From IMG/VR virus record IMGVR_UViG_3300047491_001507: a DNA stretch of 64,000 nt; one strand, given 5' to 3'. Below, piece by piece: positions 1,904 through 57,370 of the stretch. This DNA is from a virus. The position numbers and the translations under genes were made by a program. The notes beneath the pieces were generated by a model, which saw only the letters and a program-made list of their open reading frames with translations, was not told the DNA's origin and did no database searches. How positions within the stretch are numbered: the stretch's first letter is position 1; every line of letters begins with the position of its first letter.

Positions 1904-2380
1904 TTATTTTGGACCCCTCTTAAGAGGTACTTTTTTAAGTTTTTCGATATGTCGATCTGGCTTATCTTTTAAAGAATGCATAATGTTCTTTACTTTGTTT
2001 ACAATTTCTGAAGCATTATCGGCTTCGCATTTTTGTACATGTTCAGGTTTTGAAGGTATCGATACGCTTTTGCGATCTTTGTTGTAAAAACCCTTACTGA
2101 TGTAATAACATTGATGCTCTGGGTGCCAGGATACGATACAGACCCATTCTCCATCATCCCAATTTCTAGAAGAAACCATGATGCGGTAGGGTTCTTGTTC
2201 GAATACTTGCTTTACATGAAAATTTTGTTTTTTCAAAGCTGCTGAAGCATATCCCAAGGTGATTTTCGCAGCATGTTTTAAGACTTCATTTGTTTTGGTT
2301 CTATAGTTAATCTCGACACTATATCGTGTGTCGGATTCTGTTAACAAGTCATTTTTTAACCAACCAATAAAACTTCGCAT
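1904..2380 (-). CDS. hypothetical protein with capsid-targeting-like N-terminus (MRSFIGWLKNDLLTE)
   Basis: N-terminal M-x-x-F-x-x-W-L ... L-T-E motif shared with about 14 other ORFs; CTAAATAAA 4 nt upstream of ATG. Confidence 0.4.
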   Translation of the reverse strand: MRSFIGWLKNDLLTESDTRYSVEINYRTKTNEVLKHAAKITLGYASAALKKQNFHVKQVFEQEPYRIMVSSRNWDDGEWVCIVSWHPEHQCYYISKGFYNKDRKSVSIPSKPEHVQKCEADNASEIVNKVKNIMHSLKDKPDRHIEKLKKVPLKRGPK

Positions 2381-7200: not shown

Positions 7201-7278
7201 TGGGGAACAGTAGGCGATCCTATGGGAGTTTCCGTTGAAGGAGAAGTAAAAGTTAAGAAACACAAAAAAAGAAAGTGA
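4201..7278 (+). CDS. large hypothetical protein (1025 aa) with duplicated Cys4 zinc ribbons, TTTLPS repeats and acidic VDLFDDDE repeats
   Basis: CPNCGNSLSMRTSKCKCGYSFKTGK and CPNCQTENSPKARKCACGYSFKTEK duplicated ribbons; 3 tandem VDLFDD(D)E(D)ER units (DNA 7025-7098); KK-rich C-terminus. Confidence 0.5.
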   Translation: MINYKSYLDNKKLLEMAALWDVDTLNFPMTDSMACFVSVIPGSYQHQAKVLQWLMTDGMVRASQYRDRLCALLNDQEDPHPNLGKLMPLPENIANMVRNRIYGYDDEVKAEAKRIVSVGDEYESAYPADIHPCDLFSNIAREKDPILSAAASWIDIAFKEPLWIYIPTMNGEHEGYEIKKINNILRSKNLPPFKYGGVDGYLQYVEKGDWLPDDEKHGEHDRNKQHYADLSQAQITYRTDPSGKETGQVQAEFYGGTMLKSLKKFQRLASAARTAFNDYVGDNISKEIDQETRSQISNIIHSLQTQPETAQEIKPDNITNIIGKQGEKKEFELTPDLVQNKDIILEIFRKGIQEIPIRIGKDFYHHFYGSTDYFRNVEETTFRKKPCYLLYLTEQQQQDLYNYVTKDIDEGVLYVTWNWLEDDLKIRKSIESIEKVANPTKIGNWRGYFYHFFNGALAKFPDLQAKFTQNVRQVSLHKVLGIDSSSYTYKCQLSDLTKEPVTLDYIEEKLIKLGYRWNSGNPPVKGKEGALVYGSGDVYDAIKVVALDDGRFILKYPNYKIVHENDPERKFSDTSIAMLSRNQTGKPLTVSSFPSDRLGIFPLRRQHERRQLIQDLMQGDWGEPNGPVDDENDLASLKQQIRVYTKNKELIPAEKIKSDGLLALYWFTGNPAFKFGNLNKGSKRNIFNCLEKEGISPEDQEQYVRELIKKSRLKDYTWEDLNNDFPPEVVKAVGENAFDARKAYIRSTVLKHNTDRSEELTFSSMAGGDEEKYNQLTQNLVATYDAAGEEDVQRQIAPKSKDILQSRANNPEEILSTQEKKRSDCPNCGNSLSMRTSKCKCGYSFKTGKVQELPKKQCPNCQTENSPKARKCACGYSFKTEKVEKPNIPTIKPPSAKTTTLPSAIKTTTLPSKFVIPPPKPASFSVNVPITGKTPIEKVDLFDDDEDERVDLFDDDEERVDLFDDVKEHRLMNYKAWKKTVETYAVYDGKKVKDGCGYNWWGTVGDPMGVSVEGEVKVKKHKKRK
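7025..7098 (+). repeat. three tandem about 30-33-bp coding repeats (VDLFDDDE-ER) inside the 4201..7278 gene
   Basis: gtagatctatttgatgacgatgaagatgaacga / gtggatctatttgatgatgacgaagagagg / gtggatttgtttgatgatg read directly. Confidence 0.7.
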
Positions 7279-21882: not shown

Positions 21883-22089
21883 ATGTATCAAATCATTGCA
21901 AGTGTCGTTAAGATCCATGAAGATTTGTCACAAACTGGATATAATATTCCAACCTTTTATCTTGATCCTCAGTGTCAAGGCATAACTGATGCGACTCATG
22001 CAGAAAAGGTTGCTAGAGACATAATTAATCCAACAAATGATCACACTATTAAGGTGAATGTTTGTGCTGTTTTCGTTTTTCCAGATTAG
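21883..22089 (+). CDS. small hypothetical protein
   Basis: ORF track. Confidence 0.25.
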   Translation: MYQIIASVVKIHEDLSQTGYNIPTFYLDPQCQGITDATHAEKVARDIINPTNDHTIKVNVCAVFVFPD

Positions 22090-22505
22090 GCGTGATCCAT
22101 CGGATGATGGACTTTAATCCATTCGCCTGAAAATGCCGAATCAGGATCTTCATGTTCTTTGGGCATATCATCATAATGCCTGCATGAGCCTAATTTCTCA
22201 AGAATTGGCCCTTTAGGTCCCATATTGGTGCAAATCACATCTGATATTGGCAGATGATGTCTTTTGACCATATCTACAATTGGAAGACGATCTCTAGAAA
22301 TTCTGCTAGTTACAATAATCACAGAATATCCTTTTTTGGCATAATCTCGGATTAGCTCAAATCTTTCGTGGTTTAGATGATCGTCATTATCTGAATCTCC
22401 ATTGAACCACAATTGGGATTCATCGTCCCATTGAGGCACGGTAAGCGTGCTATCAAAGTCAAAAGTGACAACTTTTTGATTTTCTAACCACATCTGAAAT
22501 TTCAT
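22086..22505 (-). CDS. HAD-superfamily phosphatase (nucleotidase / polynucleotide 3'-phosphatase-like)
   Basis: Motif I FDFDSTLT (DxDxT), motif II VIIVTSR; N-terminus MKFQMWLEN also resembles the shared targeting-like motif. Confidence 0.5.
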   Translation of the reverse strand: MKFQMWLENQKVVTFDFDSTLTVPQWDDESQLWFNGDSDNDDHLNHERFELIRDYAKKGYSVIIVTSRISRDRLPIVDMVKRHHLPISDVICTNMGPKGPILEKLGSCRHYDDMPKEHEDPDSAFSGEWIKVHHPMDHA

Positions 22506-22592: not shown

Positions 22593-24293
22593 ATGGGATT
22601 TAAAGATTTTGTGATATTTGAGGCTGGTTTAGAGCATCGTGCTTTCAACAAGTTCAAAAAATTAGAAGAAATTCGCAATTTGCTTATGCAACAAGGATAT
22701 TCTGAAAGTGATATTTGGGTAACTTATTCGGAAGTTCCTAGAATTACTATTTGGGGAGGCTCAGCAGATAAAGCTCAAGGCACTCCTCATGCTTTGTTTG
22801 CCTATCCTATAACAAAAATTCTTGAAAGAAAAGATACTTTTGGCGAATACGCCACTGACAGACCTTATATTGTTGTATTTATTGCAAACGAAAAAATCAA
22901 CGATATAGGAGGAGCAAATGCCGATTTCAAGATTAGAAACAGATTTAAAGCAGCAGAAACTCCTGAGGTCGTTAGGTCTGTTTATAAAAACATCGATAAA
23001 TCAATAAAATCTAATCCTTATTTTAATTTGATTAGTAAAAAATTTGGATCTTATTGGTATATTGACTTTTCATCAATAGACGATGATGAAATCAAATACA
23101 AATCAAAAGATACATTAAGACATGTTATTGAAGAAAACTTAGACGAGGTTATGGATTTACGAGGTTCGGATACCATACTTGGAGATGAAATACCATACGT
23201 TTATAGACATTATAAAGATTATCACAACTCTCAAAGCATCCAACTTTTCAGCGACACATATTTAAATGTGAGTTTATCTTTGGAAGCATTTGATAAAATT
23301 TTAAATATTCCCGAATTTGACTACATTAGTCAATATGGACGTACACTTTTGCCATTAGATGTATTGCTAAGATTCGATTCGCAAATTAGAAAAGATGGCA
23401 TTCCTAAAATATCTGAAGTGATAAAAAGACTTCGTCAAGATGAGCCCGAGATCACAAAAATAATTCAAATGCTGTTTGATAATTGTGTCAAAAAACAAAA
23501 AAACATAAATAAACTAAGAATCAGCAAGGCATTCGGCAAAGACTTTCCCAATAAAAAGAAATTGCTTCAATTTGCCCAAAATCATGGATTGGATGTGGTT
23601 AGGGCCTTTAAAAACATGCAAACTTCAGGAAATAAGATTGAAAATGACAGTCAGGTCATCTATCGTTTTACTGAACAATTAGCAATGCAATGGGCAGAAA
23701 AGGATGGAAAGTATCGATACTATCCATCTAGATGGACCAGAATACTTAAAGCAATTGGATATACTAACATAGCAGATTTAAGGAATACTGGTGCAGTGCA
23801 TGTTGCCGAATCTACGCAAGGTGCGTTTTTTGATACAAGAAAATTAGAGATGGTCGGATTGGTACGCAATAAATCCCATAATGATTATCGTTTTTATCAA
23901 AGTCCCAGCTTCATATCTGGGGGACGAGAACAACGAAAATCTGGCTCTCCTAATAATTATTTTAGTTCGCCTCAGGAAAAAGAAGCAGAAGCAAGGCAAT
24001 ATAATACCAAAAGTCGATTTGTTGATTTAAAGAATGCTTTGTCCAGGGTCGAAAGGAGTTTGGATTTTGGCGTTAGTGTGTCAAGTGAATACGTTGAGTA
24101 TTTGAAAAAAGCTTTCAGTAGTTTCAAGAAAGTCTTAAATTGGGCTCAAAATCAATCTTCTTGGGGATATGATTTGTATTCTTTAAAAAGACTAATATCA
24201 CAAATTGAATTTAAAAACAATTCAGAAGCTATCAAGCCTCTCTTAGACAATATTAAATCTACAATCGACACTGCCTACGAAAATACAATGTAA
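22593..24293 (+). CDS. paralog 1 of a five-member tandem family (capsid-targeting-like N-terminus, conserved N- and C-terminal domains)
   Basis: MGFKDFVIFE|AGLEHRAFNKF...; conserved blocks EVPRITIWGGS..QGTPHALFAYP, YIVVFIANE.INDIGG, YRFTEQLAMQWAEKDGK..YPSRW.RILK.IGYTNIADL..TGAVH..E.TQGAFFDTRKLEM, SP.EKE. Confidence 0.6.
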   Translation: MGFKDFVIFEAGLEHRAFNKFKKLEEIRNLLMQQGYSESDIWVTYSEVPRITIWGGSADKAQGTPHALFAYPITKILERKDTFGEYATDRPYIVVFIANEKINDIGGANADFKIRNRFKAAETPEVVRSVYKNIDKSIKSNPYFNLISKKFGSYWYIDFSSIDDDEIKYKSKDTLRHVIEENLDEVMDLRGSDTILGDEIPYVYRHYKDYHNSQSIQLFSDTYLNVSLSLEAFDKILNIPEFDYISQYGRTLLPLDVLLRFDSQIRKDGIPKISEVIKRLRQDEPEITKIIQMLFDNCVKKQKNINKLRISKAFGKDFPNKKKLLQFAQNHGLDVVRAFKNMQTSGNKIENDSQVIYRFTEQLAMQWAEKDGKYRYYPSRWTRILKAIGYTNIADLRNTGAVHVAESTQGAFFDTRKLEMVGLVRNKSHNDYRFYQSPSFISGGREQRKSGSPNNYFSSPQEKEAEARQYNTKSRFVDLKNALSRVERSLDFGVSVSSEYVEYLKKAFSSFKKVLNWAQNQSSWGYDLYSLKRLISQIEFKNNSEAIKPLLDNIKSTIDTAYENTM

Positions 24294-24310
24294 AATAGGA
24301 TTCTTTGACA

Positions 24311-24317
24311 CTAAATA
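24311..24317 (+). promoter_or_regulatory. CTAAATA motif 7 nt upstream of the paralog-2 ATG
   Basis: ttctttgacactaaataacttattATG. Confidence 0.3.
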
Positions 24318-24324
24318 ACTTATT

Positions 24325-26076
24325 ATGTTGTTCAAAGAATTTTTAAATATATCGGAAGCCGGTCTAGAACATCGGGCTTTTAATAAATTAAAAAAGCTGC
24401 AAGATATTAGAAATATGCTTGCTAATCAAGGAATTGCCGATTCCGATATTTGGGTGACATTTTCGGAAGTTCCTAGAATTACCATTTGGGGCAGATCCGC
24501 AACTAAAAGTCAAGGAACTCCCCATGCATTATTTGCTTATCCTATTCAACAAGTGCTTGCTGCTGGACAGGACTTTCGTTATTATGGTAACACTCGTCCT
24601 TATATGGTTGTATTTATTGCTAACGAAGCCATCAACGATATTGGAGCAAAACATATTGAATTCAATATGTTTAAGAACAATGAATCTGTGAAAAATCAAG
24701 ACGTTGTAGATGCTGTTTATTTAAAATTGGCAAATGATGAATCTTGTAAGTACATTGAAGAAATACATAATTATTTCACAGATGAATATATCGAAATATC
24801 AGATTCTAGTAACAGATTGAATGCTTATTGGTTGAATAAGGATATTTTCGATCAAAAATCAAAACAGATAGCACGATTGGTGTTTTCGAATATATTAAAA
24901 CAAAAACTTCAGAGTTTGAAAGGGTTCGATACTATATTCGGAAATAGCGTATATCAAATTTATGATGTTTATTATAGAACGGATCATGAAGATACAGATG
25001 ATATTTTTAGCAGAATTATTGTTGAACTATCTTATGACGTAAAACGAATAATCAACAGCCCTTACAATGAGGATAAGTTTAAAGATCTGCAACAATATAC
25101 CTATTATTTGAACAAGCAAGAGTTAATAGATTTTGACAAAAAAATCAGACAGTCAGGCCCTGGTGTGGCCGAAATTATCGAAAATTTGAAGAATGACGAA
25201 GCCGAAATTAAAGCGTCCGTCAGAAAATTCATTAAAACCTGTATCAAGACATTTAAACAAATTAAAGATCAAAGGTTGAGATCTGTGTATCGTTATAATT
25301 TTCCTAAAAAGAAAGAACTTACGGCTTTCTGCAAAGAAAATGGACTGAGCATAATCGATGCTTTAAGACATATGACTGGAACTTATAAACTTCGAAACAA
25401 GCTTCAATTTGTCTACCGGTTTACAGAACAACTGGCACTTCAATGGGCTAGAAAAGATGGGAAAGAGGATTATTGGCCAGCTAGATGGGCTATGATATTA
25501 AAGAAAATTGGATTTACCAATATCGCAGATTTACAACACACTGGAGCCGTTCACGCTAGTGAACCCACACAAGCTGCATTTTTTGACACAAGAAAATTAG
25601 AAATGATAGCTTCTATCAATAATATATCGCATATTGACTATCGTCCTGTACAAAGCGATGATGCTTCATTAGAAACAGAAAAGTTGACAGGAGGAAAAAG
25701 ACAAAGACAAAGAGATCCTACTAGTTCACTAAGTTCTTACTATGGAACTCCAGAAGAAAAACAACAAAAAGCTTTGGCAGATAAGGCTTATTCTTATGTT
25801 ATGGCTTTAAGGGATGAAATTTCTAATCTTCATTACTTTGCAAGATCTCATGCTCCAGTGCCAGTACATCGTGTGTCTGCAATAACGGGTGCTATTCAAA
25901 AATTCTTGTCTATTTACAAATGGCTATCTGGTAACTTTGAGCAAATAGGGATTGATAAAAAAGAAATTTTTGAATTATTAAAGGATCTTAATGGTCTTAA
26001 TGTAAAAGACTATACTGGTCGTATTATTCCTGTATTAAATAGACTTAAAGCAAAATTGGAGCCAAATGGGGTTTAG
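24325..26076 (+). CDS. paralog 2 of the tandem family
   Basis: MLFKEFLNISE|AGLEHRAFNKL...; same conserved N- and C-terminal blocks (VYRFTEQLALQWARKDGK, TGAVHASEPTQAAFFDTRKLEM). Confidence 0.6.
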   Translation: MLFKEFLNISEAGLEHRAFNKLKKLQDIRNMLANQGIADSDIWVTFSEVPRITIWGRSATKSQGTPHALFAYPIQQVLAAGQDFRYYGNTRPYMVVFIANEAINDIGAKHIEFNMFKNNESVKNQDVVDAVYLKLANDESCKYIEEIHNYFTDEYIEISDSSNRLNAYWLNKDIFDQKSKQIARLVFSNILKQKLQSLKGFDTIFGNSVYQIYDVYYRTDHEDTDDIFSRIIVELSYDVKRIINSPYNEDKFKDLQQYTYYLNKQELIDFDKKIRQSGPGVAEIIENLKNDEAEIKASVRKFIKTCIKTFKQIKDQRLRSVYRYNFPKKKELTAFCKENGLSIIDALRHMTGTYKLRNKLQFVYRFTEQLALQWARKDGKEDYWPARWAMILKKIGFTNIADLQHTGAVHASEPTQAAFFDTRKLEMIASINNISHIDYRPVQSDDASLETEKLTGGKRQRQRDPTSSLSSYYGTPEEKQQKALADKAYSYVMALRDEISNLHYFARSHAPVPVHRVSAITGAIQKFLSIYKWLSGNFEQIGIDKKEIFELLKDLNGLNVKDYTGRIIPVLNRLKAKLEPNGV

Positions 26077-27778
26077 AGATTTTTTTTACATAGAAGGCGG
26101 ATTGGAACATCGTGCTTTTAATAAGTTTAATACACTTAGAGATGTATTCGATAAACTTGTCAAGCAACAGATCCCAGAAAACAACATTTGGGTTACATTT
26201 ACTGATGTTCCTAGAATTACCATTTGGGGCGGATCTGCTACTAAAGAACAGGGCACGCCTCATGGATTATATGCTTATCCCGTAAAACATATTCTAGAAT
26301 GGGAGTTTTCATTTAGCGATTATGCATTTGGCAGAGATTATATGGTTGTTTTTGTGGCCAACGAAGAAATAAACGACATTGGAACAGCAGATCGTTACAA
26401 AAAATTCGACTTACTTGATAAGCTCAGATCCAGAACAACCGAAGAAATAATCAATGAAGTTTATCAGCAAAGCAATAAACAAAACAACAAATATCTCAAA
26501 TTGATCTATAATTATTGCAATGAAAACTTGATGTTAGATAACAGCACGGATAAATTTGGAGTAAAATCCGAAATAGACCCTGATTACATTGAAAGCAAGG
26601 TCAAATCTGCGGCAAATTTTGCTCTTGCTAGCTTTCTGAAAGATTATTTATACTTATCTGGACCTGATAGTATTTTTGGAGAGCGAATATGGCACGTATA
26701 TTATGTGGCTAGTGGTTATAGGCTTGATCGGAAGGATTTTTATAACACAATTAGTGTGTCATTAGATGCAAATCTTATACATTTGATCAACAAATCTCCA
26801 GAATTGCAAAGATTCAAGAAGTATATGGATGGCGACAGTTTAACCAAAGAAGAATTAATAGAACTTGATGCACAAGTCAGAATATCCCAGTCTATTTTAG
26901 GCGAAATTATGCAGGATTTGTATAAAGACAAGCCTCAAGTTCTAGAAATGGCAGAGGAATTCATAAACAGTTGCATGCAAAAAAAGAAAGAATTTGATTA
27001 CGCAAGACATCAAAGCATATATGTTGAAGATTTCCCTAAAAAGAAACAGTTTATGGAAATTTGTAAAGAATATGGGTTAGATCTGCCTGCTTCTATAAAC
27101 ACGGTCGTAGATGCTTATCAGCCTAGAAATGAGGGGCAATTTATCTATCGACTTGCTCAACAATTGGCTTATCAATGGTCACGGAAAGACAATAAACCAG
27201 AATTTTCTCCTTCTAGGTGGAGGAGAATTTTAACCAGGGTTGGCTTTACCAATGTAGTGGACTTAAAAAAGACTGGTACTGTTCATTCATCAGAAGAAAC
27301 CCAAGGAGCATTTTTAGATACGAGAAATTTAGTTTTGACAGCAGTAATCAGAAATAGATCCCATACAGATTCTCGTTTTCAACAAGAAAGCCCTTATGAA
27401 GTTAGAGGGGGCAGAGAACAAAGAAACAGAGTCCAAGTAGATTATTTGGCAAGTCCAGAACAAAAACGTTTACAAGGTCTGAGAGCAAGTGTAAACGATA
27501 CAATTAAGAAATTGTATTATGCTCTTAGGAATATTGGGACCATAGCTCTGTATCCTCGTAGTATTTCTAAAGAGGATGTTGAAAGTATAGAAAAGATTGT
27601 TGATAGATACCTAAAAATAAATGATGAAATATTAAATTACAATTCGGGTTATGGCTTTTATAACCCTAGAGAAATCAAATATTTATTGGATGGTATTGAG
27701 CGTAATGATCACATTAAGGAGTTTTTGCCAGCATTGGACAAATTATCTTTAGGAATTCAGGCTAAAGAACAGAGGTAA
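26066..27778 (+). CDS. paralog 3 of the tandem family
   Basis: MGFRDFFYIE|GGLEHRAFNKF...; conserved blocks present but more divergent (IYRLAQQLAYQWSRKDNK, TGTVHSSEETQGAFLDTRNL); 11-nt overlap with paralog 2. Confidence 0.6.
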   Translation: MGFRDFFYIEGGLEHRAFNKFNTLRDVFDKLVKQQIPENNIWVTFTDVPRITIWGGSATKEQGTPHGLYAYPVKHILEWEFSFSDYAFGRDYMVVFVANEEINDIGTADRYKKFDLLDKLRSRTTEEIINEVYQQSNKQNNKYLKLIYNYCNENLMLDNSTDKFGVKSEIDPDYIESKVKSAANFALASFLKDYLYLSGPDSIFGERIWHVYYVASGYRLDRKDFYNTISVSLDANLIHLINKSPELQRFKKYMDGDSLTKEELIELDAQVRISQSILGEIMQDLYKDKPQVLEMAEEFINSCMQKKKEFDYARHQSIYVEDFPKKKQFMEICKEYGLDLPASINTVVDAYQPRNEGQFIYRLAQQLAYQWSRKDNKPEFSPSRWRRILTRVGFTNVVDLKKTGTVHSSEETQGAFLDTRNLVLTAVIRNRSHTDSRFQQESPYEVRGGREQRNRVQVDYLASPEQKRLQGLRASVNDTIKKLYYALRNIGTIALYPRSISKEDVESIEKIVDRYLKINDEILNYNSGYGFYNPREIKYLLDGIERNDHIKEFLPALDKLSLGIQAKEQR

Positions 27779-27779
27779 G

Positions 27780-29477
27780 ATGGTTTCATTTAAGGAATTT
27801 TTACTTGAGTCTAATTTAAAAGATCGTGCTTCCAACAGATTCACGAAAATCAAGGATATTTTGGCTAAATTGACTCAACAAGGAGTTCCTGAAAGCAATA
27901 TATGGCTTACATTTACTAATGTTCCTAGAATTTCTATTTGGCCCCAATCAGAAACAAGACAACAAGGAACTCCAACTGCATTGTTTGCATATCCATTGAA
28001 CTTTATAAATCATTATGGTCGTAAATTTGAAGATTTTTACTATTACGGCTGTGATCGAGCTTTTATGGTTATTTTTATTGTTAATGAAAACATTAACGAT
28101 ATTGGAGGAAAAACTGATTTTGACATTAGTCAATATTCTTTAAGTAAAAATTATGCTAGCGTAGCTAAAACAGTATTTAGAAAAATAACCAATACAAGCG
28201 ACGAAGAACAAGAATGCTTAAGTGTAATTTTCAGTTACATACAAAATCATACTCATGGTGCTGTATCGCCAGTTCCTAATGTGTTGCAGATGGCAGAAAA
28301 TGCAGTGGATATAGCCTTAGAACGTGTTTTATTTAATGCTTTTGATACCCTACATGGCGGCGATACTATATTTGGCGAAACGATAGATAGAGTTTATCAT
28401 AGTGTAGAGAAATTTGAACCAGAGCTATATTCTGAACTAGCAGGATCAGAATATAAAGCAGAATTATCTGCGGGAGTAGTTCTAAAAATCGAAAAATACC
28501 CCCAATTCAGTCATTTGGTCAAATATGCCAATAAAGTAATCCTATACGGAAAGGAATTGTTAGATTTTGACAAACAAATTAGAAAGTCTACAGCTAGCAT
28601 CGATCCATCTAAAATAGACAAAGAAGAATTGTTTAACAAAACCGTGACATTTATTAAAGAGTGTAATAGTTCTTTTGCAGAATTTATAAAGCAACATAAT
28701 GATGTATTGAATAGCAAAACATTTCCTAAAAAGGATGAGCTTATAAAAATCGCAACTGAACACCAATTAGATCTTAATTTAGCAATAATAAACGCCGCAC
28801 GCTCTGTCATGCCAATTGAAAATGAAAATCAATTTGTTTATAGAATAGCAGAAAATTTAGCAATGCAATGGGCTGATAAAGATGATAAGCATAAATATTG
28901 GCCGTCTAGATGGGCTAGAATCCTTAAAAGACTTGGAATCTCAAATATAGTAGACTTACAACATACTGGGGCTGTACATGGTTCTGAGCCTACTCAAGGT
29001 GCATTTTTCGATACAAGAAAATTAGAGATGGTGGCGGTGTTAGTAAACAGATCGCATCTAGATCCTCGTACTGTATTGGTCGATAAATATAATTCAGGAC
29101 ATCTTGAGCCAGGAGGCTCTCAACGAAAGAAAACTCCTACAGGTTGGAATTACTATAATTCTCCAGAAGAGAAAAAAGCTACAGGCTTGGCTGTCTATGC
29201 AAACCAATTATTTACTCAATTAGCAAGCAGCATCGATTATATAAAGTACTTTATGGTAAATCCAGAAGTTGAAATAGGAAAAGAAAGAGCCTCTGTAAAA
29301 CGATTAAAAAATTTGGTCAATAGATATGTTAAGATTCATGACTGGATAGCCCGTAATAAGCCTCATTTAGCAAATGAAATTCGGAGATCTTTACAGGAAA
29401 TTGATTTAGATTCAAGAAAGGAACTATCGCCAATATTGCACAGGCTGGATACGTGTTTAAATTTGGATAACATATAA
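27780..29477 (+). CDS. paralog 4 of the tandem family
   Basis: MVSFKEFLLE|SNLKDRASNRF...; VYRIAENLAMQWADKDDK..YWPSRWARILKRLGISNIVDLQHTGAVHGSEPTQGAFFDTRKLEM. Confidence 0.6.
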   Translation: MVSFKEFLLESNLKDRASNRFTKIKDILAKLTQQGVPESNIWLTFTNVPRISIWPQSETRQQGTPTALFAYPLNFINHYGRKFEDFYYYGCDRAFMVIFIVNENINDIGGKTDFDISQYSLSKNYASVAKTVFRKITNTSDEEQECLSVIFSYIQNHTHGAVSPVPNVLQMAENAVDIALERVLFNAFDTLHGGDTIFGETIDRVYHSVEKFEPELYSELAGSEYKAELSAGVVLKIEKYPQFSHLVKYANKVILYGKELLDFDKQIRKSTASIDPSKIDKEELFNKTVTFIKECNSSFAEFIKQHNDVLNSKTFPKKDELIKIATEHQLDLNLAIINAARSVMPIENENQFVYRIAENLAMQWADKDDKHKYWPSRWARILKRLGISNIVDLQHTGAVHGSEPTQGAFFDTRKLEMVAVLVNRSHLDPRTVLVDKYNSGHLEPGGSQRKKTPTGWNYYNSPEEKKATGLAVYANQLFTQLASSIDYIKYFMVNPEVEIGKERASVKRLKNLVNRYVKIHDWIARNKPHLANEIRRSLQEIDLDSRKELSPILHRLDTCLNLDNI

Positions 29478-29483
29478 TAAATA
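29474..29483 (+). promoter_or_regulatory. ATAATAAATA (T4 late-promoter TATAAATA-like) about 16 nt upstream of the paralog-5 ATG, followed by SD GGAG
   Basis: catataataaatagtgtggagtattacgATG. Confidence 0.3.
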
Positions 29484-29498
29484 GTGTGGAGTATTACG

Positions 29499-31202
29499 AT
29501 GGTTTCATTTAAAGAATTCTTTTTTATTGAGGCTGGTTTAGAACATCGGCCTTTTAACAAATTTAAGCAATTAGAAGAAATTGCCAATAAATTGAAACAA
29601 GAAGGAATTCCTGAAGCCAATATCTGGATTACATTCACCAATGTGCCTAGAATTTCTATCTGGCCTAGAACAGAAAACAAAGAACAAGAAACCCCAATGG
29701 CATTATATGGCTACCCCATTAAAATCGTCATAGACAAGAACACGGATTTTAGTTATTTTGCATCAAAAAGACCATATATTGTTGTTTTTATCGTCAATGA
29801 AGACATTAAAGATATAGGCATTAAAGACAAAAATTTCGATGTAAATCAATACAAAATAGATATTGATAGTGCGAAGATTTTAGAATCAGTTTATAGAAGC
29901 CTTCCTACAGAAGGAATCGAAGAAGAAAAATGCTTAAAAGAAATCTACGAATATTTGTTGCGATGTAGACACTTTGCATTTTTAGAGCTTTTACATAGTA
30001 CTAGTCAAGCAGCATTCCACGCAAAACAAAGTGTTTGTTACGAAGCTTTTTGTGAACTAAAAGGCAAAGACAGCATATTTGGAGGTGCCGTGGATGAAGT
30101 GTATGGCAGTGTGCATCATTCGGGGAAATTCTGGGTTCAACTGTCTACAGAGACAATAGAAGCAATCAAATACAATCCTAAGTTCAATTTCTTATTAAAG
30201 TACATCAAATCTCCTTTGTTATATGGCAAAGATGCTCAAGAATTTGATGCTTTAGTCAGAAAACCTTCTTCAGGCATTGACCCGTCTAAAATAAACGAAT
30301 CTAAGTTATTTGAAAAAGCCAAAAGTCTTGTTACTAATTTTAAAGCCGAATATGATAGAGTAGAAAAAGAACAGTTAACAAATCTTATCAGTAAGGATTT
30401 TCCCAAGAAAAAGGGGTTGATGGAAATAGCTAATGAATATGATTTGAATATAGGCTTGGCTTTGTCTAAAGCTACAGATATTTGGTACTTAAAGGCTTCA
30501 GAAGGAAGTGTTTTGCCCAGAAATAAAGATGAATTCGTATATCGTGTGACTGAAGAATTGGCTCGTCAATGGGCAAGACAAGATGGAAAAGATGGGCATT
30601 GGCCAGGAAGATGGAGAAGATTATTGATGCGACTTGGTTATTCAAGTATTGCTGATTTGCAACATTCCGGTGCAATTCACAGAGCAGAACCTACACAAGG
30701 TGCATTTTTTGATACTTCCAAGCTAGAAATGATAACGGTGATTCGTAATTTGCCTTATATGAGTGATAGATTTAAACAAAACAGCGTATCAGAAAAGCTG
30801 CCAGATGACACAGAAATGCCTATATTGCAGGACAAATCTATTGTTCACACAAGGCAATCATCCACATCTCATCGGTATGAAGATTCGCCAGAAAGAAAAG
30901 CTTACAAGGGTCTTTTAAATAAAGCAACGGAGCGTGCAAATGATTTGAGAAGGACCATAACAACTATTAAGTCGTATCCCATAGATTATCAATATACAAT
31001 ATCGCTTCATGGATTTCGAAAAAGTGTAAATGCATTTATTGCGAGTTGTGATTGGATTTTAAGAAATAGTCCTGGCATATTAGACAATATCAAGCAAATA
31101 ATAGATATAGATCCAAACAAAGTAAGACCAGAATTTCATTCCATACTCAACAGTTTAAAGTCTAAAATTAGAGAAAAAGAACAAAGTGTCATAGGAGCTT
31201 AA
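29499..31202 (+). CDS. paralog 5 of the tandem family
   Basis: Track ORF starts 29484 (MWSIT), but the family-conserved start MVSFKEFFFIE|AGLEH is at 29499 with an SD upstream; VYRVTEELARQWARQDGK, SGAIHRAEPTQGAFFDTSKLEM. Confidence 0.55.
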   Translation: MVSFKEFFFIEAGLEHRPFNKFKQLEEIANKLKQEGIPEANIWITFTNVPRISIWPRTENKEQETPMALYGYPIKIVIDKNTDFSYFASKRPYIVVFIVNEDIKDIGIKDKNFDVNQYKIDIDSAKILESVYRSLPTEGIEEEKCLKEIYEYLLRCRHFAFLELLHSTSQAAFHAKQSVCYEAFCELKGKDSIFGGAVDEVYGSVHHSGKFWVQLSTETIEAIKYNPKFNFLLKYIKSPLLYGKDAQEFDALVRKPSSGIDPSKINESKLFEKAKSLVTNFKAEYDRVEKEQLTNLISKDFPKKKGLMEIANEYDLNIGLALSKATDIWYLKASEGSVLPRNKDEFVYRVTEELARQWARQDGKDGHWPGRWRRLLMRLGYSSIADLQHSGAIHRAEPTQGAFFDTSKLEMITVIRNLPYMSDRFKQNSVSEKLPDDTEMPILQDKSIVHTRQSSTSHRYEDSPERKAYKGLLNKATERANDLRRTITTIKSYPIDYQYTISLHGFRKSVNAFIASCDWILRNSPGILDNIKQIIDIDPNKVRPEFHSILNSLKSKIREKEQSVIGA

Positions 31203-31203
31203 T

Positions 31204-31464
31204 ATGTTTTTAGAATGGCTAGAACATAGACAATTGTGCGAAGTCACTAAGAAAGGTTGGCGTGGTACGGTTGCGGCCATGTTACAAAAACATCCTGATA
31301 AATTCAGCAAAGCAGCATGCAAAAAAGGATATGAAGGGGATAAGTTGTGCCCTTGGGCAATAGCACATTCTAAGGCCAAGGAAGATGCTGAACCTCATTA
31401 TAAAGATCAGGAAAGTTCTTTAAAGGGAAAACCTAAGAAAAAGAAGAAGTTTGAGGAAGATTAA
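31204..31464 (+). CDS. small basic protein with targeting-like N-terminus (MFLEWLEH)
   Basis: ORF track; Lys-rich C-terminus KPKKKKKFEED. Confidence 0.35.
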   Translation: MFLEWLEHRQLCEVTKKGWRGTVAAMLQKHPDKFSKAACKKGYEGDKLCPWAIAHSKAKEDAEPHYKDQESSLKGKPKKKKKFEED

Positions 31465-37922: not shown

Positions 37923-38666
37923 TTGTGTTTTGCAATAAATACTATACTTGCTGGAGTTAATATGATATCAAATTTTACGGAATGGGTCAATGTCAAAACA
38001 GGGATAAAATTAGAAAACGAAGAGTATAATAAAGAAGTCGTTTCTAATTATCTGAGAAACAAAATCTATTATGGAAAATTTGATATCAAACCAGAAATTG
38101 GAGACATTGTAATTACTAATCCGGCAGTAGTTGTAGCAAATCTTAAAGCAGCCACAGAAGGTCGAGTTCTTTTGTCACAAACGCTCAATTTAACAGATGA
38201 ACGAATACATTTTGCTGTCGTGAAAAATATAGAAAATTTCATTCTAGCTCTTACTAAAGGGGGAAAGCCCATTAGTTTAGACTATGACGCATCAAAATAC
38301 CGACTTGTTACTCCCTTCTTTGGTCAATCTGGCAATAGCAGAATTCTTTTATTTTTTGCCGATAAAAAAACCAAAGCTTTTAAAGATTTTAATAACTGGA
38401 TTAATGAACAAGTGACACTTCAAAAAGGCGAAGATGAAAGGCAAAGACCAATAGTAAATAATCTTTCAGATATTTTGCCTCAAGATATGCCTCCCCTTCC
38501 TGATGAAAATGTCGCAAAGTCTCCTCCATTAAGCCTTATGAACAGAATGAGAACTCCTTTGTCGCCAGCAACAGTTCCTAGTTTAGATCAATTGGTTGGT
38601 CAACCTACAAGTGAACCACCTAAGGCAACACTGAGAGACAGAATACAACGTCGTTTCACAATATAA
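37923..38666 (+). CDS. hypothetical protein
   Basis: ORF track; possible internal start at MISNFTEWVN. Confidence 0.3.
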   Translation: MCFAINTILAGVNMISNFTEWVNVKTGIKLENEEYNKEVVSNYLRNKIYYGKFDIKPEIGDIVITNPAVVVANLKAATEGRVLLSQTLNLTDERIHFAVVKNIENFILALTKGGKPISLDYDASKYRLVTPFFGQSGNSRILLFFADKKTKAFKDFNNWINEQVTLQKGEDERQRPIVNNLSDILPQDMPPLPDENVAKSPPLSLMNRMRTPLSPATVPSLDQLVGQPTSEPPKATLRDRIQRRFTI

Positions 38667-38676: not shown

Positions 38677-39378
38677 ATGAGAAATTTTATTGAATGGCTC
38701 ACAGAAATGAGCGATGGCAATGTCGGTGGAGATAACTTTTTCTGGGGCGATAATGGCTCTGGAGGCTCAACTGTGGCTGCTGGCGTTTTGATTTTGGCCG
38801 CTGATACTAAAAGAATTTGCCTAAATCACAGAAGTAATTATATCAACAATTGGATTGATGGCAAGAGCGTTGATAGAAGTTATGGAGCAGGATTGCATCA
38901 CTTAGATGATCCAGAATTTAATAATATGTACATGAAAGGATGCTGGGGAACAATTGGTGGAGCATTAGGTGGAAGAAATCCTTTAGAAGCCGCCAAAGAC
39001 GAAGTTGAAGAGGAAATAGGCTATGGCGGTCCTTGGTTGAAAATAGAAAAATCTATGACTTGGAACATTCCTGTTAAAGGCAAAAATATAAATTACCAAA
39101 ATTTCTTGGGCTTAGTTCCTAAAGAGAAAAGCGTAATGTTTAAACCCTCCCCAGGATCATCTTCTGGCTTGAGTCATGCAATGGAATCGTTGGGGATTGA
39201 TTGGGCTACTTTAGATGAAATCAAAGGCAAAAATGCATTTAAAGGAATTAGATTTCATGATGGATTGACCAAGCTTTTATCAAATCCGTCTGTAATTGCT
39301 CAAATTGAAAAAATGTTGGGTTTAAATAATCAAGATCAAGACATGCCTAACTCTCAACCTAATCAGCCTAGTATTTGA
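38677..39378 (+). CDS. Gly-rich protein with targeting-like N-terminus (MRNFIEWLTE) and a degenerate Nudix-like box
   Basis: GGRNPLEAAKDEVEEEIGY approximates G-x5-E-x7-REUxEExGU with wrong spacing, so weak. Confidence 0.35.
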   Translation: MRNFIEWLTEMSDGNVGGDNFFWGDNGSGGSTVAAGVLILAADTKRICLNHRSNYINNWIDGKSVDRSYGAGLHHLDDPEFNNMYMKGCWGTIGGALGGRNPLEAAKDEVEEEIGYGGPWLKIEKSMTWNIPVKGKNINYQNFLGLVPKEKSVMFKPSPGSSSGLSHAMESLGIDWATLDEIKGKNAFKGIRFHDGLTKLLSNPSVIAQIEKMLGLNNQDQDMPNSQPNQPSI

Positions 39379-39841
39379 ACATAAGCGACATTCCTGGCTG
39401 AGGCTGTTGTGGCTGAGGCTGTTGTTGTGGCTGAGGTTGAGGTTGTTGTGGCGTTGGCTTGAAGTCATTATCGCTAATGTTTCCAATTGCAGGAACTTGT
39501 AAATTATTTGTTTTTACCTTCAATTGACCAATAAGTTTTTGAGTTTCTCGTATTGCATTAGGTATCACTTCTTTTAAATCGCCTTTTTCTTCAATTGCCT
39601 TGGCGAGATAAACTCCAATTTTTCGCAATACAGGAAGATACGGTCTGGCTTCTTTTGACCATTGACTGTGTAAGATTTTCCTAATCTGATTCACAATTTC
39701 ATTAGCCAGTCTGTTTAGGTGTCTGCTTCCTAAATTCTCCATGTCTTTTTGAACATCTTCCATGCCAGATAATACATCATTAACTCGATGTCCCAAATGG
39801 CTTTTTTCTTCGTTGATTAAAAAGTTTTTGAAATTTTGCAT
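39368..39841 (-). CDS. protein with targeting-like N-terminus (MQNFKNFLINE) and PQ-rich C-terminus
   Basis: N-terminal motif; QPQPQPQQQPQPQQPQP tail. Confidence 0.35.
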   Translation of the reverse strand: MQNFKNFLINEEKSHLGHRVNDVLSGMEDVQKDMENLGSRHLNRLANEIVNQIRKILHSQWSKEARPYLPVLRKIGVYLAKAIEEKGDLKEVIPNAIRETQKLIGQLKVKTNNLQVPAIGNISDNDFKPTPQQPQPQPQQQPQPQQPQPGMSLMFKY

Positions 39842-47088: not shown

Positions 47089-47478
47089 TTATTGTGTCAA
47101 AAAAGGAGGTTGCGGCCCTGGAGGAATATTTCCAGTATTAGTGTTTAATGGAGGCATTTCAGGAGATGCGCCTTTTTTGTTATGCTTTTTGTTTTCTTTG
47201 TCTTTGTTATATTTTCTATCTAAAAAATCAAAAAAATCAATATCTTCATCATCTTTAGGTAAAGTTGGATTACCACCGACAGGAGGGCCTGGAGGAGCCC
47301 CTAAGCCACCACCTAAATCTGGAGGTCCACCTAAGCCAGGAGGAGGGCCTGGAGGAGCAGCACCGGCACCGCCACCTAAATCTGGTCCACCGAGCCCTGG
47401 AGGTCCACCAGGAGGAGCGGCTCCTCCCATTCCCATTTCAGGACCTTGTTCATTAATGATAAAGTGCTTAAATCGCAT
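47089..47478 (-). CDS. Pro/Gly-rich low-complexity protein with targeting-like N-terminus (MRFKHFIINE)
   Basis: Repeated PPGLGGP(P)DLGGG units; local GC-rich island in an AT-rich genome; CTAAATA 4 nt upstream. Confidence 0.4.
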   Translation of the reverse strand: MRFKHFIINEQGPEMGMGGAAPPGGPPGLGGPDLGGGAGAAPPGPPPGLGGPPDLGGGLGAPPGPPVGGNPTLPKDDEDIDFFDFLDRKYNKDKENKKHNKKGASPEMPPLNTNTGNIPPGPQPPFLTQ

Positions 47479-52859: not shown

Positions 52860-52912
52860 AGCCAAAATTTTTTATTAACGCATAACTAATTTATTTGATA
52901 TTTGAGGAATCA

Positions 52913-54757: not shown

Positions 54758-55023
54758 CCCCAAATAAAGAATGTTACTTTGATTTCGGACAACTTGAGAT
54801 TGTTAATGCAAAGAAAGTGAAAGTTTTTGTCAAAAATGGACCTCGTGAATTAGAAGTGGGAGATATCATTGGCGGTAGACGGATTATCGCCATTAATATC
54901 AAAGGAATTAATTCAGACAACTTAGGAATTGGCATGAATGGCAAGATTACTCTCGATGGCATGCCAATGCTTACTATTGGCGTGCCATATGACAATATCA
55001 TTTCAAAACAATTTTTGTTTTGA
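54754..55023 (+). CDS. small hypothetical protein
   Basis: ORF track; ATGA overlap. Confidence 0.25.
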   Translation: MTPNKECYFDFGQLEIVNAKKVKVFVKNGPRELEVGDIIGGRRIIAINIKGINSDNLGIGMNGKITLDGMPMLTIGVPYDNIISKQFLF

Positions 55024-55534
55024 TGCGATATTGATTGCTGAAGACGATTTCATCTACTGTCACAGTAGTTCCTGAAAATTCTGTATTGCCTGCATACTTT
55101 TTGCCTGTTCCTTTTTTGACATAGGCAATTGTGCAGTGGGGCTCGTACTTTGGATGCGTCGAGCTAAAACTGCAATTTTTTCTTAATTTTTCATTTAGAC
55201 GATGTAAATCTTTACTTTCCACAGTGAATTTTACTACATCGTATTCTTCATTTTCAAAGACCGATGTTTCTTTGATTTCAAATGTAATAGGCTTTTCGCC
55301 TTTAACGACCTTTTTAACACGGTCTGGCGTTTTGTCGTGTAAACCATACAAAATAGTTACATGACAATCATCTTCTCTGCCATAATCTTCTATATCATAC
55401 ACATCAGAATCTGGAATTAATTTCTTTCCAAATTTCATTACTTTCTCAGCAAGGGCATGCGGCAAATTTACATGGGTTGACGAATATTCATGTTCTGTCT
55501 TCTCTAATAAAAACTGTTTCCAATTTCTCATCAT
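54998..55534 (-). CDS. 2H phosphoesterase (LigT-like) with targeting-like N-terminus (MMRNWKQFLLE)
   Basis: Two H-Φ-[ST]-Φ motifs, CHVTILYG and PHCTIAYV, about 75 aa apart in a 178-aa protein; CTAAATAAA 35 nt upstream and SD aaagg. Confidence 0.5.
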   Translation of the reverse strand: MMRNWKQFLLEKTEHEYSSTHVNLPHALAEKVMKFGKKLIPDSDVYDIEDYGREDDCHVTILYGLHDKTPDRVKKVVKGEKPITFEIKETSVFENEEYDVVKFTVESKDLHRLNEKLRKNCSFSSTHPKYEPHCTIAYVKKGTGKKYAGNTEFSGTTVTVDEIVFSNQYRIKTKIVLK

Positions 55535-55569: not shown

Positions 55570-55576
55570 TATTTAG
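55570..55576 (-). promoter_or_regulatory. CTAAATA motif (minus strand) 35 nt upstream of the 2H phosphoesterase start
   Basis: tcctaaataaaatagcgtgactatattataaaagcgaaaggttaATGATG on the minus strand. Confidence 0.3.
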
Positions 55577-55596: not shown

Positions 55597-56175
55597 ATGG
55601 ACTCTTTAACAAAAATTATAAAAGAAACAGAAGCCTTAGATATTAATATTGAGCCTTTTACAGCAGATTTTCCTTCTACTATTCGGGATTCTGTTCTTCA
55701 AACCAATTTTTATTGGGGGTTAGCAGCTTATATTTCTCTGTTTAAAGTGAAAAAAGTCTTAGAATTAGGCACTTGCACAGGAGCAAGTGCTGCTATTATG
55801 GCAAGGGCCGGTGCAGAAGTTGATACCTATGATTTATTGGATAAATGGGAACTTCCCAAAATAGACAATTTGTATCGCCATATTGTTCCTCAAGATTATT
55901 TGGAATTTTTGAAATTTGAAGGTTATGACATGATCTTTGTAGATGTAGGACACGATGGTAAAGCAGAACAAGAAATTCACGAAAAACTAACAAAAGAATA
56001 TAAAGGCATTGTGTTCTATGACGATATCATCATAAACCAAGATATGATCTATTTCTGGAATGGAATTAAACAAGACAAATTGCCTTTATTTTGGCATGTG
56101 GCAAAATATCCCTCAGCCAATCCTGGAGGAGGACTTATCACCAAGAATGTTGGGTTTGGTATTGTCAGATATTAG
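55597..56175 (+). CDS. class I SAM-dependent methyltransferase (O-methyltransferase-like)
   Basis: Motif I VLELGTCTGASA, acidic DTYDL, MIFVDVGHD; start moved to internal ATG (MDSLTKII) because the track ORF (55477) overlaps the convergent gene. Confidence 0.45.
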   Translation: MDSLTKIIKETEALDINIEPFTADFPSTIRDSVLQTNFYWGLAAYISLFKVKKVLELGTCTGASAAIMARAGAEVDTYDLLDKWELPKIDNLYRHIVPQDYLEFLKFEGYDMIFVDVGHDGKAEQEIHEKLTKEYKGIVFYDDIIINQDMIYFWNGIKQDKLPLFWHVAKYPSANPGGGLITKNVGFGIVRY

Positions 56176-56418
56176 TTTCTTTTGACCCCTGCGTTTATTT
56201 ACATTTTCTTTATGATCGTGAGGAGCCATGATTCCATTTTTACCTGGAGGTCCTTTATCTCCATAATGAATCCAAAGATATGTAACAACATCAGCAGAAC
56301 CAGGAGTTGTGTATAGAGGAGGATATTGCCCTACGACATCATAAATTGGCGGATATAAGCCGATTTTTGATCCTGTGCGTTGATCTTTTTCTAAAAGCAA
56401 CCATTCTTTGAATTTCAT
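56113..56418 (-). CDS. small protein with targeting-like N-terminus (MKFKEWLLLE) and a short collagen-like GDKGPPGKNG segment
   Basis: N-terminal motif; CTAAATA 5 nt upstream. Confidence 0.35.
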   Translation of the reverse strand: MKFKEWLLLEKDQRTGSKIGLYPPIYDVVGQYPPLYTTPGSADVVTYLWIHYGDKGPPGKNGIMAPHDHKENVNKRRGQKKLISDNTKPNILGDKSSSRIG

Positions 56419-57064: not shown

Positions 57065-57370
57065 ATGAATTTTAAGAGTTGGTTAGAGCAAAAAGAAGAA
57101 CCTATCTATTGCTTATGGCGAGAATATAAAGATTATGGAGAAATACACATTCTCCTAAGCAATATCCGACATATATTTGCTGCAAATCTAGATAATTTTT
57201 ATAACAAAAGAGACTTTGCTTCATGGAGAAAACAAAGCAAGATTCCCAATGCAAAATGGGTAGTTTGGCACAGAATTCAAGATGCTGTAGATCAAGGCTG
57301 GGTAGAACAAATAGAACCCAAAAAGCCTCCAAAAAAAGAAAGCCCTTTTAAACAAAAAAGACTTTTCTAA
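57065..57370 (+). CDS. small protein with targeting-like N-terminus (MNFKSWLEQKEE)
   Basis: N-terminal motif. Confidence 0.35.
   Translation: MNFKSWLEQKEEPIYCLWREYKDYGEIHILLSNIRHIFAANLDNFYNKRDFASWRKQSKIPNAKWVVWHRIQDAVDQGWVEQIEPKKPPKKESPFKQKRLF

Follow-up and report, generated by a model that had tools for sequence, protein, structure and literature searches.

Acb1 of phage T4 is a compact phosphoesterase of the 2H superfamily with activity against CBASS, an antiphage signalling system based on cyclic oligonucleotides; its family includes T4 gp57B and the enzymes of Erwinia phage FBB1 and Burkholderia phage BCSR5 (Hobbs et al. 2022, PMC9117128). A wider range of phage 2H domains was described by Iyer, Burroughs, Anand, de Souza and Aravind in 2017 (PMC5512222), who found them in polyvalent proteins, in MuF and portal fusions and as solo phage copies, and who predicted that such domains are injected and act as RNases or in the degradation of nucleotide signals. 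[quoted passage not shown] The first ten residues of IPIII suffice for encapsidation; within the CTS, residues 4 and 7 serve targeting and residues 8 and 10 processing (PMC9026906), and the T4 prohead protease gp21 cleaves after the glutamate of an I/LxE site (PMC12991175). Here, we describe a gene that brings these elements together. It lies in a 64,000-nucleotide stretch of viral DNA, IMG/VR record IMGVR_UViG_3300047491_001507 (the window in what follows), and encodes a 178-residue 2H phosphoesterase with an N-terminal tag that resembles the T4 CTS.

The reading that we put forward, tentatively when taken as a whole, is that the product is a packaged, tag-delivered 2H enzyme directed against host nucleotide signals. 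Phage 2H enzymes, Acb1, the T4 CTS on diverse internal proteins and the predicted injection of phage 2H domains were already known. The new element suggested by the sequences would be delivery by a T4-type tag that many genes of the phage use. In a literature search, we found no description of an Acb1-like or 2H enzyme that bears a tag of the CTS type, of how extensively huge T4-like phages use the tag, or of the likeness between the T4 Acb1 N-terminus and the IPI tag; Hobbs et al. (PMC9117128) note merely that acb1 is adjacent to ipI.

The 2H phosphoesterase

The coding sequence is complete (Table 1). Its ATG is the first possible start, with no in-frame start further upstream, and initiation at the next methionine (M33) would truncate the first beta strand. 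A Shine-Dalgarno-like sequence (AAAGG) is located 4–8 nucleotides before the ATG, and a scan for sigma-70 promoters and terminators near the gene returned nothing exceeding the shuffled expectation.

The first-pass annotation had placed the protein in the 2H/LigT superfamily on the strength of two motifs, an assignment upheld by profile scores, by the conservation of the motifs and by the predicted fold. Both motifs are present (C57-H58-V-T60-ILYG and P132-H133-C-T135-IAYV), and their H-x-T (HxT) cores align with the catalytic residues of T4 Acb1. The protein scored above the cut-off of 27 bits for both Pfam PF13563 (2_5_RNA_ligase2, 37.1 bits) and Pfam PF23474 (Acb1, 32.5 bits), and the PF23474 match is precomputed for most of its homologs; it also matched PHROG 755 (2e-12). 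The best solved relative by sequence was BCSR5 Acb1 (PDB 9q2g, 5.7e-7), and a literature search returned no paper on the BCSR5 phosphodiesterase structures. A profile built from 69 homologs matched BCSR5 Acb1 (2.2e-7) ahead of the archaeal LigT PH0099 (5.5e-4) and FBB1 Acb1 (1.6e-3). The annotation had named loss of the HxT motifs in homologs as evidence against itself; the motifs were retained across all 69, with H58, G64, F93, D99, V100, H133, T135, Y138 and K140 invariant and T60 at least 90% conserved. The Lys-rich loop beside the second motif (AYVKKGxGKKY) contains the invariant K140 and a glycine, G142, that is at least 90% conserved in the same set.

The AlphaFold2 model, calculated with the homolog alignment, reached a predicted local distance difference test score (pLDDT) of 92.6 and a predicted template modelling (TM) score of 0.85. 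It contains the two-lobed, pseudo-symmetric beta fold that the 2H superfamily requires, and matched 2H folds exclusively. Foldseek ranked BCSR5 Acb1 first, and the best TM score (0.70) was obtained for the Arabidopsis thaliana cyclic phosphodiesterase (CPDase). In BFVD, entries bearing the name Acb1 ranked below the closest viral models, which were phage proteins labelled 'cyclic phosphodiesterase' or '2'-5' RNA ligase superfamily'. On sequence grounds, the gene product is very probably an active, metal-independent 2H phosphoesterase with the tetrad H58/T60/H133/T135.

The protein shares with Acb1 the compact phage-encoded format, the HxT/HxT tetrad and the motif context [DE]-Y-x-P/A-H-x-T-[LI]-[AS]-Y. 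Of the base-stacking aromatics of Acb1 (Y12, W74 and F107 in FBB1/T4 numbering), W74 corresponds to the invariant F93 and F107 to H127, a position held by tyrosine in most relatives; for Y12 the alignment is ambiguous, with Y17 as the candidate. Y110 of T4 Acb1 corresponds to Y130. The window protein differs from Acb1 in several respects. Identity is low (13–21%), and in hhalign the family profile aligned with T4 Acb1 over just 33 columns at 76% probability. The core is larger, as about 160 residues align to LigT-type folds versus 127–133 to Acb1, and the window protein carries an extra helix and acidic loop (residues 26–57) as well as the Lys-rich insertion after the second HxT motif. T4 Acb1 lacks a full CTS-like tag with protease site, whereas the window protein has both. 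These features place the window protein, with its catalytic residues intact, in a separate clade of phage 2H enzymes; it scores above the Acb1 threshold and is without the Acb1 lid. Its sequence leans to Acb1, whereas the fold and the neighbourhoods of some relatives lean to an RNA cyclic phosphodiesterase.

Comparison with the LigT/ThpR enzymes (TIGR02258; PDB 4qak, 5ldi, 1vgj and 5h7f) sets the window gene apart as phage-encoded and tagged, with no ligase partner among the window open reading frames (ORFs) scanned. The 2H domains of the polyvalent, MuF and portal proteins belong to the same 2H subfamily as the window protein, which is a solo copy of the kind described by Iyer et al. (PMC5512222). 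It differs from the fused effectors in being a solo protein of 178 residues with a predicted cleavable T4-type tag and no covalent fusion. By analogy, it would correspond, as a separate protein delivered by a tag, to the 2H domains which other phages deliver through fusion to portal, prohead-protease or polyvalent proteins.

The N-terminal tag

The first-pass annotation had also claimed that the N-terminus of the protein is shared with other genes and resembles a targeting signal, and both parts of the claim held. The tag was scored on 71 crude window ORFs with the pattern ^M.{0,3}[FYW]..[FWY][LIVF], which was written after the motif had been seen, so that its P values are descriptive. The pattern fitted 17 of the 71 ORFs, whereas its frequency in the interior of these proteins predicted 0.7 (binomial 5e-19), and it followed an internal methionine in only 1 of 310 cases. 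One of the 17, at 16312–16608, is probably a chance match. A hydrophobic-x-Glu sequence in residues 5–17, a feature outside the pattern, was found in 15 of 17 tagged and 12 of 54 untagged ORFs (Fisher 1.6e-6). The recurrent N-terminus reads M-x-(N/S)-F-K-E-[F/W]-L-x-x-E, and the tagged proteins are the more basic ones (median isoelectric point 8.6 versus 6.1 for the untagged; P=0.013). The tag codons vary synonymously between the window genes, which indicates conservation and selection at the level of the peptide. A conserved DNA element was also considered and rejected, as codon usage differs between the copies.

In the 2H protein, the tag is disordered in the AlphaFold2 model (pLDDT below 50 for residues 1–3 and 5–12). 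The closest 2H homologs start with MKTWKQFLLE (W4, F7, L8, E10), and the window copy has one additional methionine. Within this closest clade, residues 2–12 are 72% identical versus 55% for the remaining protein. L9-L10-E11 is a predicted I/LxE protease site, and a cut there would leave a mature protein starting at K12. The targeting-like nature of the N-terminus is supported by its positional match to the experimentally defined T4 CTS. For comparison, the retrieved T4 N-termini read MKTYQEFIAE (IPII and IPIII) and MKTFKEFTST (IPI): as in T4, the tag is an N-terminal peptide of about ten residues with aromatics three apart, followed by an aliphatic residue and glutamate, on otherwise unrelated and mostly basic proteins, and the T4 internal proteins are basic too. 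The window tags differ from the T4 CTS in number, with three to a few carriers in T4 versus 17 of 71 ORFs in one window; in the nature of the carriers, which include likely enzymes (2H, Nudix-like and HAD-like) and proteins of 566–1025 residues; and in the frequent tryptophan at the second aromatic position.

T4 itself provided two further N-termini of this kind. T4 Acb1 (gp57B; locus L001, T4 NC_000866 73952–74410) starts with MMEFKDFSTG, close to the IPI tag of the adjacent gene, and T4 acb1 has virion and internal-protein genes around it. The 54-residue T4 gp61.1 (locus L011, T4 18966–19130) starts with MKTFKEFIKED, a perfect CTS with an IxE site. To our knowledge, neither T4 Acb1 nor gp61.1 has been described as a virion protein.

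The tag was also found in related phages. In a close relative, L006 (gp13 protein 62% identical), 5 of the 14 genes around the 2H gene are tagged, and in a 481-kb T4-like contig, L002, 9 of 28 genes carry the variant MK.LK.F.ES. The tag is rarer in LR756511 and L010, where the 2H protein itself is untagged; orthologs gain and lose the tag, as expected of an address label. The tag is not shared by the neighbours of the 2H homologs in L004 and L009, and the N-terminal helices of these two subfamilies (MSK..IKEDLRK.LLE and MDIK..LR.ALLE) may not be genome-wide tags. A Joint Genome Institute (JGI) metagenome scan gave 489 2H relatives, of which the best 80 loci were analysed, 49 of them longer than 8 kb. 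About 20 solo 2H copies have the aromatic tag, some of them inside head modules, other solo copies start with different recurrent N-termini (MNW[YF]K.AKK and FNW), and about six have none. MNW[YF]K.AKK was seen on the solo 2H proteins of L040, L051, L057, L060, L073, L075, L081, L088 and L089, and may be the address tag of another phage lineage.

A tagged family of five tandem paralogs lies in the window (Table 1). They are 32–40% identical to one another and share the conserved stretches VPRITIWG, QGTPHALFAYP, NExINDIG and HTGAVHxxEPTQGAFFDTRKLEM. An exhaustive profile search with the paralogs retrieved 854 relatives among 1.84 billion representatives, and 49 of the top 70 start with the tag in a looser and wider pattern (MNFKEFLLLD, MNFKDFLFFDE and others), which makes the tag old and widespread rather than peculiar to the parent contig. 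Some of these relatives have an N-terminal NUDIX domain fused to the C-terminal half. No Pfam, PHROG or NCBIfam family was found among the members scanned, and a word-indexed search with one paralog recovered three of the five in the window (the query and two others) and none outside this phage. The AlphaFold2 model of a paralog (pLDDT 65.5) was too poor for a structure search.

Head genes and their association with the 2H family

The window, with a G+C content of 35.9%, is part of a T4-superfamily myovirus, as judged from the genes that it encodes: a 790-residue tail sheath protein (best matches in T4-like cyanophages and coliphages, about 26% identity), a gp3-like sheath stabiliser, three tube paralogs, a baseplate hub and a gp13-like neck protein. 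When 20 kb of the window were compared with 50,697 phage records by megablast, there were zero matches, and a search of an IMG/VR collection returned neither the window contig nor DNA resembling it. Exact look-ups of the 2H protein and of the protein of ORF 948–1526 gave no record.

The parent contig of the 2H protein is a 306,208-bp JGI contig. An S77 prohead protease, P0174 (226 residues, PF03420), which is 79% identical to the S77 protease of L010, is recorded on a contig whose length and sources equal those given for the 2H protein and the paralogs, and thus appears to be encoded on the parent contig. A 25.7-kb Logan copy of the P0174 locus, L012 (37.5% G+C), contains in order TerL, a T4-type portal gene with an intein, a 117-residue gene, a gene for a 560-residue protein, the S77 protease, a scaffold gene and Gp23. 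The 117-residue gene starts with a tag (MSLFQQWLKK...LIES) and occupies the site held in T4 by the core proteins gp67 and gp68; the scaffold protein is acidic, 297 residues long and coiled-coil. With the head genes taken from L012, the phage resembles T4 in its tail, portal, S77 protease, scaffold and Gp23 genes. An intein is present in the portal genes of both L010 and L012, the latter presumed to come from the phage of the window.

The 2H family is repeatedly found with head genes. In LR756511 (595 kb) and L010 (253 kb), the 2H gene is located between TerL and portal, 6–9 kb upstream of the S77 protease and Gp23, and in 9 of the 49 long metagenome loci a T4-type TerL or portal gene (mostly both) lies within 10 kb of the 2H gene. 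In 29 of the 80 loci, the 2H domain forms part of a larger ORF, with lengths from 400 to over 4000 residues. Eight of these were scanned for domains, and the architectures included Portal_Mu with 2H (twice), Phage_portal with 2H, 2H with Mu-like_Pro, an LPD38 polyvalent protein, and 2H with an ATP-dependent ligase. Mu-like_Pro denotes Mu-like prophage protein I, a prohead protease/scaffold protein. The fused relatives are 41–49% identical to the window protein over the 2H domain. By analogy with these systems, delivery inside the capsid is well supported comparatively, and we regard packaging as reasonably likely.

A candidate late promoter was found upstream of the 2H gene (Table 1). In the T4-like phage Aeh1, CTAAATA serves as the late promoter (PMC1524935). 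In the window, it occurs within 60 nucleotides upstream of 6 of the 17 tagged genes, the 2H gene included, versus 1 of the 54 others (Fisher 5e-4); the sole untagged gene with this sequence is that of the tail sheath. In L012, it precedes TerL and the tagged 117-residue gene of the head module. The placement hints at late co-expression with head proteins, and the promoter evidence is weak because CTAAATA is not enriched in the window overall (21 occurrences versus 15.3 expected). At several genes, CTAAATA (or TATAAATA) stands only 4–7 nucleotides before the ATG, namely at 1904–2380 (−), 22593 (+), 24325 (+), 47089–47478 (−), 56113–56418 (−) and 3247–4164 (−). This leaves no space for a Shine-Dalgarno sequence, and transcripts started from these sites, should they be T4-type late promoters, would have little or no leader.

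Proposed route of delivery and alternative explanations

By analogy with T4, we infer the following sequence of events. The 2H gene would be transcribed late from the CTAAATA promoter, and the amphipathic tag, with W5 and F8 in the roles of T4 positions 4 and 7, would bind the scaffolding core of the assembling prohead and thereby enclose the enzyme. An S77 (gp21-type) prohead protease would then cut after L9-L10-E11, and the resulting 167-residue mature enzyme would be kept in the head with the DNA. In the next infection, the enzyme would be ejected together with the genome and would cleave host nucleotide second messengers from the first seconds onwards. The likeliest targets would be oligonucleotides, cyclic or linear and with 3'-5' or 2'-5' linkages, that belong to defences of the CBASS or type III CRISPR type; they would be cleaved by attack of the 2'-OH via a 2',3'-cyclic phosphate intermediate, as by Acb1.

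Several observations weigh against this reading. Packaging, cleavage and ejection rest on analogy, and the linkage of the S77 protease to the window rests on matching contig records rather than on read-through sequence. The Acb1 lid residues E141 (adenine-specific) and W147, which close over cyclic GMP-AMP (PMC9117128), are not conserved in the window protein, where I175 and Y169 occupy the aligned positions and the C-terminal 40 residues contain no tryptophan. A tag on about a quarter of the window ORFs would mean an unusually large capsid cargo, untagged 2H orthologs also lie inside head modules (LR756511 and L010), and the T4 proteins 57B/Acb1 and gp61.1, not known to be packaged, have CTS-like N-termini. 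Finally, some 2H relatives have an RNA ligase, a kinase, Tpt1 or Thg1 in their neighbourhood or carry a fused ligase domain.

In an alternative reading, the enzyme would be real and the motif no capsid address, marking instead a class of (late) proteins for some other purpose, for example attachment to a membrane or compartment, controlled proteolysis or an influence on the start of translation; the enzyme would in that case work only once it has been made in the infected cell, as is assumed for T4 Acb1. The motif is indeed on 24% of the window ORFs and, as a variant, on about a third of the L002 genes, which is many for cargo. The CTAAATA sequences 4–7 nucleotides before the ATG point in the same direction, since first codons might be of importance in leaderless translation, as do the untagged orthologs and the T4 proteins just mentioned. 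Against this stand the match to all four mapped T4 CTS positions with a protease site at the end, the synonymous codon variation that argues for selection on the peptide, and the small tagged gene between portal and protease, where T4 has its prohead core proteins; other phages, moreover, fuse the same 2H domain to portal and prohead-protease proteins. We therefore consider a role other than addressing rather unlikely.

A different substrate has also to be weighed. The enzyme, packaged or not, could be a LigT/ThpR-like RNA 2',3'-cyclic phosphodiesterase or an ADP-ribose 1'',2''-cyclic phosphate (Appr>p) phosphodiesterase that heals RNA ends: it would open the cyclic phosphate ends left by host anticodon nucleases and other metal-independent RNases, and a kinase, ligase and Tpt1 of the phage could then reseal the tRNA or mRNA. 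The best structural matches are LigT and CPDases, with the A. thaliana enzyme at the top TM score, and NCBIfam TIGR02258 (ThpR) was matched at 5.7e-9, but with 36.1 bits the match is far under the equivalog cut-off of 65.7. Relatives are located near an RNA ligase of PF09414 (L002 and L009) and an AAA_33 kinase (L009), near Tpt1, Thg1 and a metallophosphatase (L004), and near two Macro domains, NUDIX and NAMPT (L009), and in L027 the 2H domain is fused to an ATP-dependent ligase domain. In contrast, neither RNA ligase, polynucleotide kinase nor Tpt1 was present among the window ORFs scanned, a reference tblastn of the 49 long metagenome loci found ligase in none and Tpt1 in one, and the survey of phage 2H domains reported no RNA ligase association (PMC5512222). 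A healing enzyme that is injected without a ligase has no obvious use, and the tyrosine at +5 of both HxT motifs is shared with T4 and BCSR5 Acb1, whereas PH0099 LigT has arginine at this position of its second motif. RNA healing is thus unlikely, although it keeps real weight. An injected RNase that, like Usb1, runs in the nuclease direction and trims or cuts host RNAs (such as crRNA, tRNA and regulatory RNAs) as infection begins, the role proposed by Iyer et al. (PMC5512222) for 2H domains fused to MuF and portal proteins, seems improbable: the conserved Lys-rich loop by the second HxT motif could bind a polyanion, but identity to Usb1 is merely 8–12% and no RNA-binding module is indicated by the sequence. 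Given packaging, a defence signal is slightly favoured over RNA ends as the substrate of the delivered 2H enzyme, because its nearest sequence relative is an Acb1, because a lone injected enzyme suits signal degradation and not multi-enzyme RNA repair, and because the published survey saw no ligase linkage.

Other genes of the window and of related loci

The coordinates of the 2H gene, its elements and the other tagged genes are collected in Table 1.

Table 1. Features of the 2H gene and tagged genes in the window
Feature	Position	Strand	Remark
2H phosphoesterase coding sequence, complete, 178 residues	54998..55534	−	From the ORF list; stop codon 54998–55000
N-terminal tag, residues 1–11 (MMRNWKQFLLE)	55502..55534	−	W5, F8, then L9-L10-E11; alignment with T4 IPI/II/III
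Catalytic 2H domain, residues 17–178	55001..55486	−	AlphaFold2 fold starts at about residue 17
First HxT motif, H58-V59-T60	55355..55363	−	Aligns with T4 Acb1 H44/T46
Second HxT motif, H133-C134-T135	55130..55138	−	Aligns with T4 Acb1 H113/T115
CTAAATA, candidate T4-type late promoter	55570..55576	−	35 nucleotides upstream of the 2H ATG
158-residue protein (MRSFIGWLKNDLLTE..)	1904..2380	−	Tagged L006 homolog 52% identical
1025-residue protein (MINYKSYLDNKKLLE..)	4201..7278	+	Tag pattern; adjoins the T4 gp13-like neck gene
HAD-like phosphatase (MKFQMWLE..; motif I DFDST)	22086..22505	−	Sub-threshold Pfam, NCBIfam and PHROG HAD matches
Five tandem paralogs, 565–583 residues (MGFKDF.., MLFKEFL.., MGFRDFF.., MVSFKEFLLE, MVSFKEFFFIE)	22593..31202	+	All tagged
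86-residue protein (MFLEWLEH..)	31204..31464	+	LR756511 homolog untagged
234-residue protein (MISNFTEWV..)	37962..38666	+	Tag pattern
Nudix-like protein (MRNFIEWLTE..; Nudix box GGALGGRNPLEAAKDEVEEEIGY)	38677..39378	+	Pfam NUDIX 19.5 bits, cut-off 21.1
157-residue protein (MQNFKNFLINE..)	39368..39841	−	Tag pattern
Gly/Pro-rich 129-residue protein (MRFKHFIINE..)	47089..47478	−	CTAAATA 4 nucleotides before ATG
101-residue protein (MKFKEWLLLE..), 2H neighbour	56113..56418	−	CTAAATA 5 nucleotides before ATG
101-residue protein (MNFKSWLE..), 2H neighbour	57065..57370	+	Tag pattern

Several of the small tagged proteins lack an assigned family, two of them reported as directly downstream of the 2H gene. 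L010 encodes a similar tagged Gly/Pro-rich protein, and L006 a tagged 1448-residue homolog of the 1025-residue protein, likewise adjoining gp13. The last 54 residues of the 1025-residue protein (7114–7278, +) open with a second tag-like sequence (MNYKAWKK...) and are homologous to a separate tagged gene of 61 residues in L006 (MKNFIQWLDEM...); either two genes have been fused or one has been split here, or the region is possibly a module for internal cleavage. In the Nudix-like protein the spacing of the box is correct, and Glu7 and Arg15 are replaced by Arg and Asp, which in the sequence looks like a swapped salt bridge. A PDB sequence search gave no match for the Nudix-like or the HAD-like protein.

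Beyond the tagged genes, homing endonuclease genes of the LAGLIDADG and HNH types at 8191–9072 (−) and 16646–18076 (−) flank the tail module, in which the three tail-tube paralogs stand in tandem (14516–16315, +). We take the adjacent genes at 43957–47035 (−) for a gp46/gp47-like pair, judging only by their N-termini and with no family search made. A 'putative phage metallopeptidase' (PF18894, 100 bits) and an M24 methionine-aminopeptidase-like protein are encoded convergently at 47596–48816, and both could target protein N-termini. A radical-SAM lysine 2,3-aminomutase (Fer4_12, Radical_SAM and LAM_C) and a GNAT acetyltransferase form a convergent pair at 52895–54464, directly downstream of an Hsp20 gene (52329–52796). 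This pair resembles ablAB, the genes of N-epsilon-acetyl-beta-lysine synthesis; in a phage, such an auxiliary function is unusual. The gene at 57367–57792 (−) encodes a CAP/SCP-domain protein whose signal peptide (MIKKIFLLILLLFVGCSQ) is of the lipoprotein type, and an ORF of more than 1568 residues (59295–64000, +), in which six stretches match a 'virion structural protein' PHROG, runs past the end of the window. No tRNA genes were found in the window.

In the related loci L004 (360 kb) and L009 (368 kb), the 2H gene lies in a conserved island whose other genes encode Tpt1, a Thg1-like protein, a metallophosphatase, RNA ligase, an AAA_33 kinase, MnmA and YqeY, together with DUF3307, NUDIX, NAMPT and two Macro domains. 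Such an island would be a coherent set for RNA repair and NAD/ADP-ribose recycling or anti-defence.

Implications

A more far-reaching idea, which we hold as a possibility only, is that this huge T4-like phage and its relatives have enlarged the internal-protein system of T4 into programmable cargo on a large scale, in which dozens of unrelated proteins with a common cleavable address tag would enter the prohead and be injected as a ready-made anti-defence and host-takeover toolkit. That cargo, speculative as it is, would include the Acb1-like 2H enzyme, the Nudix-like hydrolase, the HAD-like phosphatase, the five-member paralog family and proteins of more than 1000 residues. As a corollary, T4 Acb1, with its IPI-like start (MMEFKDF...) and its place next to ipI, may itself be a virion protein whose anti-CBASS activity arrives with the DNA. 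Since the tag matches the T4 CTS, the idea is directly testable in T4.

For nucleotide-signal defences such as CBASS, Pycsar, type III CRISPR and Thoeris, the usual view is that phages respond with enzymes or sponges produced once infection has started. If the reading proposed here is true, a capsid-borne signal-degrading enzyme would act before any phage gene expression, which would change the models of timing in this arms race. With the tag as a simple rule, the injected proteome of uncultured huge T4-like phages could also be predicted from sequence, which would yield a list of first-response anti-defence candidates that is otherwise impossible to obtain without a host.

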